This document shows, piece by piece, positions 19,369 through 31,297 of a DNA stretch of 64,000 bases. Position 1 is the stretch's first letter; each line of letters begins with the position of its first letter. The notes beneath the pieces were generated by a model. That model had not been told where the DNA came from and did no database searches. It saw nothing but the letters and a program-made list of their open reading frames with translations. The position numbers and the translations under genes are program-made. The stretch comes from Curvularia clavata (taxonomy: Eukaryota): NCBI GenBank assembly GCA_023920165.1, contig CP089277.1:2294001-2358000 (forward strand), in the 5' to 3' direction.

Positions 19369-21189
19369 TGATAATAATAAAAATAATAATATGTGGTGGC
19401 GCGTGACTTGGTTCTTCGCTTCTTTGTTTTGCTGTGGTTTGTGCGTTTGCGACGTTTGGTTTTTCTATAAGAATATTTGTGACATTGGAAGATTATAGGG
19501 CCGCGCGTGGTATGGGATTTGGAGCATATATACTTGGATGTCACCGTGGGTGAACAGTGTTGTGTTGTGGAAGAACATTACGCAGGACGGTTTGGCTGGA
19601 CACTGTGCGCCTGTGGGTAGCATCATACCAACTTTTAGGAAATTCTTCACAGCGAGCCAATCGGTCTGTTCTCAAATCAAGTCACTAAACTATAACCAGC
19701 GCCTCAAGGGCAGCTATTGGATTAAGATTTGAGTCACATACATAGTTGATAACTACCTAGTATTCCATGCACAGCAAGGGGGCGGATTAGTGTTGTCTGG
19801 TCTTCAATAGCTATTTAGTGCTGCAAAAAATGAAGGCCTTTGCTTGATTTACCGTCTTGCTGCACGCATCTAGAATTCTTATCTAATGTCCGTCCCTACG
19901 TACCGGGACGCACGGTGTAACGGGACACTTTTTCTTTCGGGTGCCCGGATTTTACCCACCATGCCTATAAATCGACAGATCCAGCGTGCATCAATCTTGC
20001 AGCTCTTGCTCTTCTAGTACATCAGCCTCCGACGCTGAGAAGCGTGTTGTTGACCACGCTGTTGCTCGTTCTGTCGGTGCCGTCCATCGACTCTCCTCTG
20101 ATACCCCTTGTTTGTTCGCGACAACTAACATTTGTAGAGAGCTCGGTGGGCTAGAAAGAAAGTTAGGATAGCAAAGACCAAGACTGCACACTCAAAGAGT
20201 CGACTTAAGGTGAGCAGTGTGCATCCCGGCAGTTTCTCCGCGCTGGCGACAACATCGTCAAAACGCGTCGAACCGGCCGTGCGCCCTGAGCGACATTTGG
20301 TAGCAGTAGCGTGCTGAGATGTCTGCGAGCCGTATTGCGCGCTGTGGCTAAGCACCCTAGCAATATGATCCTTGCCTCAGGCAGCTCTTATTCCCGATCT
20401 GTAACGTCCATTCACCCATAACGGATCAACCGTCATAGCGGAACACTAATAGCACTTTCTATAATAACAACACCAACACCCATCGCATAGCTTATGTAAC
20501 TACTCTTGGAATAGACACCTTGATCTCTTGCCTCTCTACAGACCTGATATTTTTATCGCAACTCTCTTGGTTACCTTATAATACTACGAGTCGCTGCTAT
20601 TCTACCAATCGCCGTCACCTCGGACTGCCTCGAACCTCTCTTAATCTTCTTGCATCCGTACAAGAGCTTGTCATGCAGTAGAAACCTATTAGATGATCAT
20701 ATACCGAGAAATACAATCTTCCACCAAGTTGATTGCGCGGCAGCAGTGATTTGTTGCTTGATCGAATCGCGCAGCTCACACCCATACTGTACAGAAGCGG
20801 CCTAGCTGTATTCTAACAGCGCCTGAACACAGCCACACCTGACTCATATGAGGATGCCCTTTTTCACTCACGTGATGGTCGGCGGCTCGCAATATGCCGA
20901 AGTACTGCGACTAGATCCTTACGGCTACTAATTAATGTCTATCTCTTCATGGCGGGACACTTTTTCACCCGGATCTTCGGCATCAGGCCAGCGCGACTGC
21001 ACATAGTCGAGCATAACGCATATTGTTCTGCACGTATATTTCTTCATGTATACTAGTCAGCGAGAAGGAAACCCCAACGACCGTTCGATTATTATTTAAC
21101 ATTATATGCCATCAACGCAAAAATCCTGTCCCTCACAGCTGCACTGTCACGCACCCACTGCCAAAAAAATCCCCGCTCCTGGTTAGATC

Positions 21190-21588
21190 ATGGCTACCTT
21201 AATCTTCAGCCGTTCTGTTCCCTCTGATTTTGACGACGACGTTGACAATGCTAATGCCGACCTACCTCCCGAACATGTACGGGCTTATCCTTGTAAGGTC
21301 CCTTCGTGTCTCAACTATGGCAAGTCTTGGCTCCTCCGAAGCAACTTCTTCCTTCTGAAAGAGCAAGATTTAAACAAGGAAACAGCAACAACGCCGGCCG
21401 CATGCCATACAATCGAGAAAAGGTGGCGGTATACGATTGATCCCAATCTGCCGCCTTGGCGGCCCCAGATTTTCATTCCCGAAAGGGCCCAGACGAGGAC
21501 GTGTGGGAGTACAGATGACGACCCAGTCCGCCTTGGTAGTATAAGACTTTTGTCACGACTGCTGGGAGTGGTAAGTTACTATTGTTAG
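21190..21588 (+). pseudogene. Small Cys-containing protein remnant (YPCKVPSC motif), apparently frameshifted
   Basis: ATG ORF with AYPCKVPSCLNYGKSWLLRSNF and WRYTIDPNLP. A protein-like continuation (APDFHSRKGPDEDVWEY) lies in another frame near 21460. Confidence 0.4.
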
Positions 21589-27556: not shown

Positions 27557-29807
27557 TTATAGGTTCTTGTCACTACACTCCGCTCGCCAGGTATGCAGCA
27601 CGTCGAGTGACGATTGTGTATCATAATGTTTCTCGCCAAAGGCCTCTTGCCGCAACTAAAAGCATATTTCCATCAGTGCAAGAGCCTCCTCGCGGCGAGC
27701 TTACGACGGCAGCGTGAAGGCAAGATTTTTCATGCTGGTCAGCGTGCTAGGGTACTCCTCACCAAGCACGCTCTTCTTTGTCTGCATCACTTCCACAAAA
27801 AGCTCTTCCGCTTCCTTATATATCCCATCACTGTACAGACTCTGGGCACATTTCTATTCAAGATCTAATCTGTCCTTATTGCTATCCTGTGTCTGACTGT
27901 GCGACAGAATGAGTAGAGCATGCAGAAGCAAGCGCCTCCACTTGCTCTTGTTACTGTGATCGTTGTTTGGAAATATCTTAATTAGCTTTGTGATAGCGCG
28001 TTAAGTCTATTGTTCGAGCTGTCTCTAAGCTTGTAGTCTCGTATGTAGGGTATTATGCACTAGTTGATGGACGTCTAGTGCTGATTCGGTAGGTCGTCTA
28101 GTGATAAGCGTATACTTGTTAAGTACTTTAATGGCATCTTTATGGGCCTGTGGTGAAGCTGCCTCTAGAAGATCAAGCGAGATGTCCTTTTGATTTATGT
28201 ACGTATGTACTAATAAAAAGATAGTCTATAGCGACTATATCGCTATTCTAGACTTGGATTATAGAGAGATAGTGTAGCAGCTATAGTCTTTCTCAGACCA
28301 CATTCCCACTGCTCGCCTTTAGACAAGTTATTACTGTACTTGAGAGCTACGTCTTTGTGCTGGTCTAGCTGTGCTTAGTACTGCTGCACGGTTATGCTAC
28401 TAGCGTTTATGCACGCTGCCGCTTATGCAATTACTAAAGGCAAATATAATAGCTCTTTTAGCAAGTATATAGCAGTATGTTGCTTATTGTTTGAAGACGG
28501 CGTTGCCACGCCGTTTTGTAGTATCCTTAGCGCTGTGTCTGGCGTTATCTTATGCAGCGCTATAATATTCTGAGGAGTAAGCGTCTTAGCTATATTGCTC
28601 TCTATTTTTGTGAAGATAATAGAATATAAATTAGAGTGCGGCAGAAATTTAGCTAAGTTTGTACTAGTAGCTTCTGTCGTAGGCAAGCTACTTGGCTATA
28701 TAGTAGTGCGCTCTATGTTATTGAAGACTAGCAAACATTGTCGCGCACTTATTACTGCTATATAGCGTTCTACGATCTGCTTTATGTCTATCTGGTTATC
28801 GTTACACCTAGGAATGTTGAGCTTCTGCGCAATAATGGCATAAGACTAGTAGAGGCTGTCTCTGTCGCTCGCGTCTATCTAGAAAACTGAGCAGCTTCTG
28901 CTGTTCTGCTTTGTTCTGAAGGCAGTCTTGAGTGCGAGCTGCGATTTGCCTATTCCGCTAGGGCTAATAATTGCTAGCGCGGTGGTAGTCTGCGTATTGC
29001 TAAAGAGCTTTGCTTTCAGCTCTATAAGCTGTAGTTCGCGGCCTATAAAAGACTAGTTTCGTGAGAAGGGAAAAATTAAGGGCGCGCTGCTAGCTCTCTT
29101 AACTTTAGCCTGTAGTCTTCTTAATGCGCTCTTCTTTTCTTCTCTATACGTTGTAGGTATAGAGACGCTAAGAACTTTAAGTAGTTAGGCAGTATATGAT
29201 GTCTTCGTCTTTAGTCGTTCTGCGATTTTCGGCCTATTATATTCGCTTAGATATGCTAAACTGGTCTAAAGAATAGTTGCGCAGTGCGGCGAGTGAAATG
29301 TTAGTGATATTGAATAGTAATTAATCAAGTGATACTTTGTCGCCTATGCGCTGTCCTTTACACGAGAAGAACTCGACTGATACTAGCGCGACTAGCTCTT
29401 AGAGCGTCTATTCTCGAGTGAACTATTCGCTCTTCAGGAACGACGTTTCCTAGTTGCTACGTTAGGGCGTGTCTGCCGTAGTGGATAGCGAGACATCCGA
29501 TAGAAAGACGTAATATTAGGCCGCGTTCTGGTACTACTGAAACATCAAGTTGATCGCCTTTGAGCGCTTGTTGTTATTCTATCTATCGATCTAGAAGTAC
29601 CGCAACCTGTTCTGAGCTACTTATTTGGCGCAGAACTATAGCTTTCGGTAGCTATGTTCTTTTTTTATAGTTTCTATTTAATATGTCCTTAACAATAATC
29701 TTGGAGTCGCCGCATTGGTGCGATAGAATAGCGTAGGGCGGGATTGGCTTGCCGCGAAAGTCTGTAAAGATTAGTCTGTCTAGTGCGTCTAAATAGAGAA
29801 GCTGTAT
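27557..29807 (-). pseudogene. RIP-mutated fungal NLR: HET - NB-ARC - TPR
   Basis: HET: IPPYAILSH, YF*ID, AINLMFQ*YQNAA, *FTRE*TL*EL. NB-ARC: FIGRELQL, SGIGKSQLAL, F*IDAS, CLLVFNN. TPR: AEELFVEVMQTKKSVLGEEYPSTLTSMKNLA. Start ATG appears as ATA; Trp/Gln codons converted to TAG/TAA. Confidence 0.88.
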
Positions 29808-31297
29808 GGCGCTTATAGCTTGGACTTTAGTCTAAAGAATTAGAGATATAAATAACTTTTGTAGTAGACGAGTGAGAGTAGAATGTTAGCGGGAGTAGAA
29901 TGGAATCTTTACGATAAGGCAGAGAAGGCAGCCTAGTGAGGCAGTGCACACAACCAGGCTGAAGATGCTGCTGGCTGCATCAAGCGCCCAGCATCCTGCA
30001 CTGCCTCCCCTCACCACTTACACTAAGGCAGTGTTTGCCTTGCAAACTCATGGCAGAAGAGTGCATATGTAGGTAAGATGCTAGCAAATACAGCTAACTA
30101 ATCTATGAAGGTTATCGTTATAGCGTCTCGCCTGGCTCTATGCGACGGGGGCGGCTGCCTACACGGCCCGGGAATAGGAGCTGTCTAAGATCAGGCGATG
30201 AGTGAGAGCCGCAGCTCTCAGCCACAGCGCACAACCCCTCGCAGATATCTCAGCACGCTACCGCTGCCAAATGCCGCTAAAGTCGCACGGCCGGCTTGTC
30301 GCGTTTTGACGATGTTGTCGCCAGCGCGGAGAAACTGCCGGGATTCACACTCCTTACGTTAAGTCGACTCTTTAAGTGTGCAGTCTTGATCTTTGCTATC
30401 TTTGATTTCTTCCTAGTCTACCGAGCTATGTAGAATTTTATGCTGTCGCTAATAAACAAGGGTGTATTAGAGGAGAGTCGATAAACGGCACTGACAGAAC
30501 GAGCGACAGCATAGCCAACAACACGCTTTTTGGCGTCGGAGGGTAACACACTAGAAGAGCAAGAGCTGTAAAATAGATGCGTATTGCGTTTGTTAGTTTT
30601 TGAGTACGTTACACGCAACCCGAGCATCCGGAAGAAAAGGTGTCCCGTCACACCGTGCGTCCCGGTACGGAGGGATGGACGTTACACAAGCTTACAAGAT
30701 CATCAGGCCAGAATAGATTTCTATTCAACCCGATCGAATGGCTTCATATATCTTACCACCGGGCAGTGCATCTATATTGGATCGTGATTCCCCATTCCGA
30801 GCTCGCCATTACTCTGCATCAGCAATTACAAATGATACTTCCACATGCACAGTCTCCAGATATCGAAACGACCAATCTCCCAACCACTGCGTCTTCCTAC
30901 CAGAAATTCACATGCAGCCGCAGAAAAATCATTCGCAGACACCCTCTTGCACTTAATGAGAATTTCTACGCGCATTCCAAAAACGGCTTTTTTCTTAGGC
31001 CATGGGTGCTGTAACCGGCCTTTGCGAAGTAGTTTAAGCAACAGAACTAGTCGGCTGTTGCAGTAAACCTGCCGCGAGTCATGAACTACGCACATACATA
31101 CCATCCCTGCTCCAAACTTTCCACGCGCCAGAATACCAGACTAAAAGTGTGAAGAACAGGGACCGTATAGCCGCATACATATACCAAAGCTTTTCCAGCT
31201 CAACACTCACATCCTAGAAATCTTTTCACAAAAAAAATTTGCCTCTCCTTTAGTTATATTCGTAGCGAACAAGACACTCTCACCATGCCTCCCTACG

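Follow-up and report, generated by a model that had tools for sequence, protein, structure and literature searches.

Nested pogo-like elements with long inverted arms may copy and move fungal immune-receptor genes

Introduction

A stretch of 64,000 nucleotides from Curvularia clavata (contig CP089277.1, positions 2,294,001 to 2,358,000; hereafter the window) holds, at positions 19886-30682, an interval of about 10.8 kb that is bounded by inverted arms and encloses a decayed gene of the NOD-like receptor (NLR) type. Fungal NLR repertoires turn over fast, and the cause is an open question on which elements of this kind bear. An earlier reading, made from the sequence alone (the sequence-only reading), had proposed a non-autonomous, gene-carrying 'Pack-pogo' transposon of 10.8 kb, belonging to a long-armed family that captures and moves host genes. 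Is the interval one transposon, several, or none, and do the genes within it travel with its arms? Our analysis indicates that it is very probably a three-level nest of TA-inserting elements of the pogo/Fot1 branch of Tc1/mariner, two of which have long terminal inverted repeats (TIRs), are non-autonomous and carry genes as cargo.

Anatomy of the Nested Elements

Self-BLAST of the window returned just two long repeat pairs, both inverted. The outer pair (19878-20352 against 30690-30217) aligns over 476 bp at 80.7% identity (E 1e-123) and the inner pair (20402-20908 against 27355-26841) over 522 bp at 73.8% (E 2e-84). The inner pair, which the sequence-only reading had missed, marks off the greater part of the 10.8 kb as an element of its own, 6,950 bp long and lying within the outer left arm, and, since this is a separate insertion, the outer unit is natively 3,845 bp (10,797 - 6,952) rather than 10.8 kb. 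The sequence-only reading had thus recognized the kind of element, its ends and the enclosed NLR pseudogene and second element, all of which are seen between the outer ends, while its single unit resolves into an outer carrier of 3.85 kb, an insertion of 6.95 kb and a pogo element of 1.86 kb.

The outer element occupies 19886-20403 and 27356-30682 and is flanked by TA at 19884-19885 and 30683-30684, its target-site duplication. The left arm (19886-20403, + strand; terminus ATGTCCGTCCCTACGTACCGGGACGCACGGTGTAACGGGACAC) is continued beyond the inserted inner element by 7 bp (GGCAGCC, 27356-27362, +), and the right arm (30153-30682, - strand) is its inverted counterpart, the arms being about 525 bp long. 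The left boundary reads ...TTCTTATC-TA and continues inside the element as ATGTCCGTCC..., while the right boundary, in reverse complement, reads ...AAGCTTGTG-TA and continues as ACGTCCATCC...; on both sides the likeness between the arms ends at the TA, as had been claimed. Read from either end, the element begins, after the TA, with A(T/C)GTCC...CGTACCGGGACGCACGGTGT(A/G)ACGGGACAC. In the window, the 28-nt motif of the termini is present at the two outer ends and nowhere else (0 expected in 100 shuffles), and positions 19886 and 30682 are the exact ends of the element.

The inner element (20404-27353) measures 6,950 bp, or 5,086 bp once the nested pogo and one TA are subtracted (6,950 - 1,864). 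Its target was a TA in the outer left arm (20402-20403), 518 bp in from that arm's terminus, and this TA is duplicated at 27354-27355. The left arm (20404-20908, + strand; terminus ACGTCCATTCACCCATAACGGATCAACCGTCATAGCGGAACAC) is 74% identical to 27353-26841, and the right arm (26841-27353, - strand) was delimited by the same inverted alignment. At the left end the sequence runs ...GATCTG-TA and then ACGTCCATTCACCC..., and at the right end, in reverse complement, ...GGCTGCC-TA and then ACATCCATCCACGC.... Removal of the inner element together with one of the two TAs leaves an outer left arm of sequence ...CCCGATCTG-TA-GGCAGCC. At the matching place in the outer right arm stands ...CCGTG-TA-GGCAGCC, with an uninterrupted TA at 30160-30161, and for this reason that arm serves as a built-in paralogous empty site for the inner element.

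Within the inner element lies a conventional pogo/Fot1-type element of 1,862 bp (24830-26691, - strand), flanked by a TA duplication at 24828-24829 and 26692-26693. Its TIRs begin with ACGTACCC and hold a 17-bp direct repeat, ACGGGCGAGTTTCTCAC, twice. The transposase has decayed: a DDE_1 domain is recognizable at 25501-26001 (E 2e-27) and an HTH_Tnp_Tc5 domain weakly at 26233-26412, so that the DDE_1 plus HTH feature of the pogo/Fot1 group is present, the latter part weakly.

TA stands on both sides of all three elements, and their ends share one design, namely TA, then ACGT, then repeated ACGG(G) sub-motifs; the pogo/Fot1-like character attributed earlier to the outer ends is borne out by this correspondence with a true pogo. 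The TIRs that delimit each unit measure 476-525 bp at 78-81% identity in the outer element, about 510 bp at 74% in the inner one and 72 bp at 96% in the nested pogo. A manual count gives about two thirds matching positions when the outer and inner families are compared over their 43-bp ends, and past these ends the arms of the two families are unrelated, with no BLAST match between them.

No transposase of the outer or inner element was found by six-frame read-through Pfam analysis of 19886-30682 or by tblastn with transposase P0009, and since neither encodes one, both can only be non-autonomous members. The sole transposase domain in the interval is the DDE_1 of the nested pogo, in agreement with the earlier statement that the element has no transposase of its own. 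Likewise, no DUF3435 tyrosine-recombinase captain was present among the Pfam matches of window open reading frames (ORFs) of at least 110 amino acids (aa) or of the six frames of the interval, which accords with the proposed distinction from Starships.

A composition like that left by repeat-induced point mutation (RIP) distinguishes the multi-copy parts: TpA/ApT is 1.32-1.44 and the substrate index 0.86-1.02 in the nested pogo, in the interior and right arm of the outer element and in the right arm of the inner one, compared with 0.85 and 1.25-1.31 in the flanks. Transitions prevail among the differences between arms (69 to 38; 71 to 44), and only about one third of them are in CpA/TpG context, for which reason we use the wording 'RIP-like' and nothing stronger. 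The three elements in the window are dead.

Cargo Genes

The outer element encloses a decayed NLR gene with many stops (27560-29813, - strand), recognized by Pfam and tblastn (E 1e-24 to 8e-60). Its HET region (29813-29183) is 38-42% identical to HET-NACHT ORFs of related metagenome loci (E 1e-24 to 1e-28, tblastn). The NB-ARC-like stretch (29049-28213), with the P-loop GIGKSQLA, was recognized by eye only, and Pfam gave no significant match on this part. After a frame shift, the DUF7779/TPR region (28392-27560) is 52% identical to the TPR ORF of locus L009 (E 8e-60). The gene is decayed by RIP-like mutation.

The inner element carries a near full-length gene with SAM and HMG-box domains (22202-24536, - strand), identified by Pfam and protein alignment. 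It has five in-frame stops at 22965-23270 and is for that reason a pseudogene; an intron-like gap of 62 bp lies at 22400-22460. The alignment covers residues ~10-700 of Pleosporales proteins of about 780 aa, the closest being those of Paraphoma chrysanthemicola and Plenodomus tracheiphilus (77-79% identical), followed by Alternaria alternata (56-60%). The family has at least four paralogs in P. chrysanthemicola (64-77% to the window ORF) and several in A. alternata. Proteins akin to both cargo genes come from the Pleosporales.

Copy Number and Empty Sites

Part of the region 13600-21000 is present in 19 of 21 listed sequencing runs, and contigs of run X1, which like X2 may be the source of the window, and of runs X3, X4 and X11 were placed on 17500-33000 at 80% likeness. 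In X1 the summed depth is 86-93 in the flanks, 266-303 in the outer left-arm bins, 98-117 in the inner element outside the pogo, 308-459 in the outer interior and right arm, and 1,057-1,742 (~11-19 times flank) in the nested pogo. These figures would roughly mean a few copies of the outer element and its NLR gene (~3-5 times single-copy depth), a single copy of the inner element and upwards of 10 copies of the pogo.

Paralogous outer copies join position 20400 directly to 27356, skipping 6,955 with 3 letters between, a net difference of 6,952 that equals the 6,950-bp inner element plus one TA. This joint occurs in X1 (on a contig of 17,575 bp), X3 and X4, and two more X1 joints (20343 to 27464 and 20403 to 27405) represent further outer copies without the inner element. 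The insertion site is also uninterrupted in the related loci L005, L009 and L010. Loose ends at 19899 reveal other copies that end ...TA+ATGTCAATCC... in other flanks, reading ...GATAGC-TA-ATGTCAATCCAAG in two contigs of X1 and ...AAGCATA-TA-ATGTCAATCCAAG in three contigs of X3. The window's own nest is present in X3 and X4 as well, in contigs spanning 20238-24868 (2 differences) and 20223-24899 (1 difference).

Relatives in Metagenomes

Sixteen metagenome loci (L001-L016) were found with the 24-nt core of the outer terminus. Arm homologs are present in all 16, are 65-76% identical over up to 520 bp (805 bp in L009) and stop at the same terminus. TA, which lies outside the fishing motif, precedes 20 of 20 outer-type termini (18 metagenomic and 2 in the window) and all three inner-type termini. 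The flanks of the outer-type termini are unrelated, except in L001 and L011, which are the same locus. Taken with the run depths, these loci uphold the earlier proposal of a long-TIR family with several copies and defined ends. Arm conservation is 0.94 in the terminal 40 columns and 0.70-0.82 elsewhere, a profile that is unusable as an independent sign of function because the loci were selected by a motif in columns 20-43.

In 12 of the loci there are 94 ORFs that reach 90 aa or more, of which 50 were scanned for domains, the longer, non-overlapping ones being chosen. NLR-type domains are present in nine of the ten interiors, counting arms with at least 300 bp of interior sequence and including the window with its HET-NB-ARC-TPR gene. 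L005 and L009 carry TPR sequence homologous to that of the window, L013 one ORF with WD40 repeats followed by TPR, L014 WD40, and L010 and L012 HET-NACHT-ankyrin. HET-NACHT-WD40 genes are found in L007, behind a transposase gene, and in L002, between inverted arm pieces (18-166 and 5554-5690; 68%, score 98 against a shuffle maximum of 36). Other arm pairs with other cargo, which the sequence-only reading had led one to expect, are therefore represented by L002 and L010/L012. The junction of arm and TPR is kept in L005, L009 and L013, relatives that are only ~70-75% identical.

L010 and L012 share 3,645 bp of gene and arm at 99.945% identity (2 mismatches); the identity stops exactly at the terminus and TA, past which the two are unrelated. 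The gene is apparently intact, with ORFs of 596 and 337 aa around one apparent intron, and its composition is not RIP-like. L004 and L008 share 398 bp of arm at 96.7% in different flanks. An inner-type arm in L011 is 77% identical to 26784-27355, has the terminus ACGTCCATCCACTCG next to a TA and bears a HeLo-domain ORF on its interior side, so its cargo differs from that of the window's inner element.

Insertion of one element into the arm of another was observed in three cases (the window, L002 and L007), each with an uninterrupted homolog. In L002 an element starts ...CAGCTC-TA, then ATGTCG, within another element's arm, where L007 reads ...CAGCTCCAGAAG. In L007 the first element ends ...CGACAT, followed by TA-TCTCAGC of a second element's arm, 288 bp from its end, where L013 is uninterrupted (...TTTGC-TA-TCTCGGC). 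We cannot tell whether such nesting represents a target preference or merely harmless insertions.

Some further features of these loci were recorded. The inner-type arm of L011 is flanked by the HeLo-domain ORF (694-1560, +) and a long ankyrin-repeat ORF (2900-5000, +), with no NACHT between them; an insertion could have split a HeLo NLR here, or the HeLo ORF could be cargo and the ankyrin gene an unrelated neighbor. Two outer-type elements stand 415 bp apart in L012 (3643-4064), the end of one facing the start of the next. The repeats of the carried NLR genes form arrays of closely similar units: WD40 in L002 (1034-2565; 126-bp period, 78-84%), TPR in L009 (582-1304; 126-bp period, 87-92% identity) and ankyrin in L010 (2-226; 99-bp period, 97.6% identity). 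Such arrays are of the 'high internal conservation' kind of fungal NLR. Just inside the outer-type arm of L013, a single ORF (339-1925, +) joins WD40 (residues ~181-394) to TPR_10/TPR_12 (437-513) and may be a chimera of two NLR repeat types.

A Candidate Transposase

In L007 some 655 bp separate the outer-type terminus ATGTCGATCCACGCGTACCGGGACGCACGGTGTAACGGGACAC from an intact frame of 605 codons (565 aa from the first Met) with a DDE_1 domain (E 1e-29). Because it is only 31% identical to the transposase of the window's nested pogo, the L007 transposase belongs to another family than the latter. It had 972 matches at E <= 1e-3 among 8,000 scored candidates; one relative, 70% identical, bears the source label 'transposase tan1', and many relatives are on contigs of ~2.4-2.5 kb, which hints at a usual autonomous unit of that size. 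Parts of the outer arm are homologous to the stretch of L007 between the terminus and the transposase start.

L002 and L007 are homologous over the NLR gene (75%) and the arm (77%), and L002 has 389 unrelated bp where L007 has 2,375 bp including the transposase. Either L007 is an autonomous NLR carrier and L002 its deletion derivative, or the transposase part arrived separately. A second transposase locus at L001/L011 was considered and rejected; the tblastn match in question (residues 17-50, E 1e-4) lies mostly upstream of the likely start codon and mirrors the DNA homology of the arms.

Proposed Mechanism and Alternative Explanations

The history that would best explain the interval begins with an outer element whose long inverted arms, inverted copies of one sequence, enclosed a HET-NB-ARC-TPR NLR gene and no transposase. 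An element of a sister family, with homologous 43-bp ends and a SAM/HMG-box gene, would then have jumped into a TA of the outer left arm, and a standard pogo of 1,862 bp would have landed later in this inner element. Movement would depend on a Tan1/Fot1-like DDE transposase supplied in trans, which would bind the conserved terminal ~45-60 bp of both arms; by cut-and-paste, the unit would be excised and reinserted at a TA, which would be duplicated. Anything between the arms would be copied with them, and in the outer family HET-domain NLR genes recur in this place. The sequences show the anatomy, the TA duplications, the precise empty sites, several copies with common ends, their varied cargo and, in one relative, a transposase gene behind the common terminus; the identity of the acting transposase, the entry of the genes and any present-day activity are matters of inference.

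That the 10.8 kb are a single non-autonomous unit, moved whole with the NLR pseudogene and the second element as cargo, appears very unlikely to us. The outermost arms and TA flanks are real, and a possible empty-site joint covers the whole interval, so that the nest could have come or gone as one piece: the outer empty site is predicted to read ...GAATTCTTATC-TA-CACAAGC..., and an X11 contig joins 19878 to 30683 with 5 letters between, a net difference of 10,799 (10,797 plus TA), as predicted. As an outer empty site this joint gives the nest reading weak support, having a depth of 2.1 in an apparently mixed sample and 3 of 5 bridging letters that differ from the expected TTATC. Nevertheless, the inner 6,950 bp has its own arms, ACGT-type ends and TA duplication, is precisely absent from at least three paralogous copies in X1 and from L005, L009 and L013, and is single-copy as opposed to the ~3-5 times flank depth of the outer parts. 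That host DNA underwent an inverted segmental duplication or recombination, with no transposon involved, is harder still to credit. Breakage and repair can yield inverted repeats of ~0.5 kb, and the copies are old and mutated, but the TA boundaries are sharp, the ACGT-type termini have the design of the nested true pogo, the 20 homologous termini stand in unrelated flanks and the empty sites are precise.

The arms could also be independent fragments or solo ends around resident NLR genes in regions rich in both NLR genes and transposons, the genes being neighbors and not cargo. Members of the family often adjoin or nest in each other (L012, L002 and L007), ankyrin-repeat ORFs lie outside the termini in L008 and L011, and, according to a passage of a 2026 article, proximity to transposons is more frequent among NLRs whose repeats are highly conserved (PMC13449251). 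We nonetheless consider this explanation improbable. Summed depth in X1 is comparable over the arms and over the NLR interior; each window arm has the other as its closest relative (80%; sisters in the tree, support 0.98); and the conserved junction of arm and TPR, the near-identity of L010 and L012 through gene and arm up to the terminus, and the NLR domains in nine of ten interiors all argue for genes that are carried.

Several observations weigh against the nest as we explain it, and against its cargo and transposase in particular. The ankyrin ORFs outside the termini imply that part of the NLR association could reflect NLR-rich, transposon-rich regions, and non-NLR genes outside the termini in L003 (T5orf172/MUG113) and L016 (hydrolase) were counted against a pure cargo reading. 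The 467-bp interior of L004 gave no NLR domain match. Since the metagenome loci were picked by a 24-nt terminal motif, the conservation of their ends is partly a matter of ascertainment. The copy-number estimates are summed contig depths, which are not copy numbers, and none of the contigs compared showed, beyond the window, another complete copy with its two ends. Neither a parent gene of either cargo nor a capture event was identified; of the claim that the family captures and moves host genes, the part that stands is that whole genes between the arms are copied along with them. In L007, a scan for inverted repeats directed at the second terminus gave one weak 20-nt match inside the ORF, and local alignment of the terminal 120 nt to L007 2600-3500 gave nothing more. 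Past its first ~150 bp the L007 arm resembles other arms only in the innermost ~270 bp. With a transposase behind an outer-type terminus at this single locus, the second end not found and the limited likeness of the arm, the link to a transposase is a candidate and not a demonstration.

We return to the nest of pogo/Fot1-branch elements, which may be part of something larger. It is possible, though we give it slightly less than an even chance, that a lineage of small pogo/Fot1-like transposons of the Pleosporales is a dedicated shuttle for whole HET-domain NLR genes of immunity or allorecognition, enclosed by long inverted arms. The modules would vary between copies (NB-ARC-TPR, NACHT-ANK, NACHT-WD40 and a WD40+TPR chimera), some copies would be intact and recently moved, and one relative may carry both transposase and NLR.

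Genomic Surroundings

Genes typical of fungi occur in the window, namely those for an OPT transporter, a protein kinase A (PKA) regulatory subunit, an RNA polymerase large subunit and a V-ATPase subunit, and the window is filamentous ascomycete DNA. The nest sits in a gene-poor island of ~22 kb that is bounded by a glycosyltransferase-like gene (13635-15203) on one side and the gene for the PKA regulatory subunit (37183-38769) on the other. On either side of it, 15300-19883 and 30685-37100 have ORFs of up to 346 aa with no Pfam match and are single-copy by X1 depth. Further downstream, the region 40539-42962 has a G+C of ~0.60 and long open frames in either direction (+, 808 aa; -, 396 and 411 aa) with no Pfam match, and it contains internal direct repeats (42177-42487 against 41964-42274, 72%). 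Among the metagenome loci, L003 has an ORF of 494 aa (2376-3857, +) with the T5orf172/MUG113 domain directly outside an outer-type terminus.

Comparison With Known Systems

Fot1, Pot2, Tan1 and Flipper are fungal pogo/Fot1-type transposons of the Tc1/mariner superfamily. The elements described here resemble them in the TA duplication, in the ACGT-type ends with repeated sub-terminal motifs and, as a candidate link, in the DDE_1 gene behind the L007 terminus. Their arms of 0.5-0.8 kb are unlike the 72-bp TIRs of the nested pogo, and the long-TIR elements of the window have no transposase and hold a complete unrelated gene between the arms. Some Tc1 elements, e.g., Minos, have long TIRs as well, according to a passage in PMC7325037. 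On sequence grounds, the TA duplication, the TIRs and the transposase in a relative would place the elements with pogo/Fot1, while the half-kb arms, the lack of a transposase and the whole-gene cargo set them apart from that group.

Tc7 of C. elegans and Vader/Tan1 of Aspergillus niger are long-TIR non-autonomous derivatives that share only the tips with an autonomous Tc1/mariner element. In a similar manner, the outer and inner families share ~2/3 of the 43-bp terminus, the rest of their arms is unrelated, and their transposase would come from elsewhere. Tc7 and Vader/Tan1 have no genes, whereas the interior here is a gene of 2.3-4.5 kb.

Pack-MULEs are transduplicating plant elements that carry mostly gene fragments. 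As in Pack-TYPE elements, both long-TIR elements of the window have host-type coding sequence between TIRs and no transposase, and in the outer family the same cargo-bearing unit is present at several loci (L010/L012), the inner element being single-copy. Unlike the plant elements, they have whole NLR genes in long-armed, transposase-less shells. Transduplication by hAT and Tc1/Mariner elements is known in Pyrenophora tritici-repentis, also of the Pleosporales; in the Tc1/Mariner case, as we understand an excerpt of that article, the element moves the captured ORF together with a coding region of its own, unlike here (PMC3538342).

For genome annotation, elements of this kind matter in that gene finders see them as genes and transposon finders as unknown repeats. 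To our knowledge, giant Starships are the only vehicles of NLR genes named so far; their sizes range from tens to hundreds of kb, and the enzyme that moves them is a DUF3435 tyrosine recombinase. That Starships often carry NLR genes is a statement quoted in PMC13449251. No pogo/Fot1-type element with NLR cargo was found in our full-text searches of the literature, with subscription journals and Repbase/Dfam not covered. The present elements are like Starships in having NLR genes as cargo in Pezizomycotina, and they differ in their size of 4-7 kb (window units 3.8-7 kb), TA insertion, pogo-type ends and lack of any DUF3435 detected in the window. The movement of NLR genes by small transposons is directly testable, because the ends are known to the nucleotide, both the TA duplications and the empty sites are exact, and an intact copy exists at two sites (99.95%). 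If the proposed reading is true, sister families would carry other regulators (SAM/HMG-box, HeLo), and fungi would have a cut-and-paste route, far smaller than Starships, for duplicating, shuffling and perhaps horizontally spreading their NLR genes.

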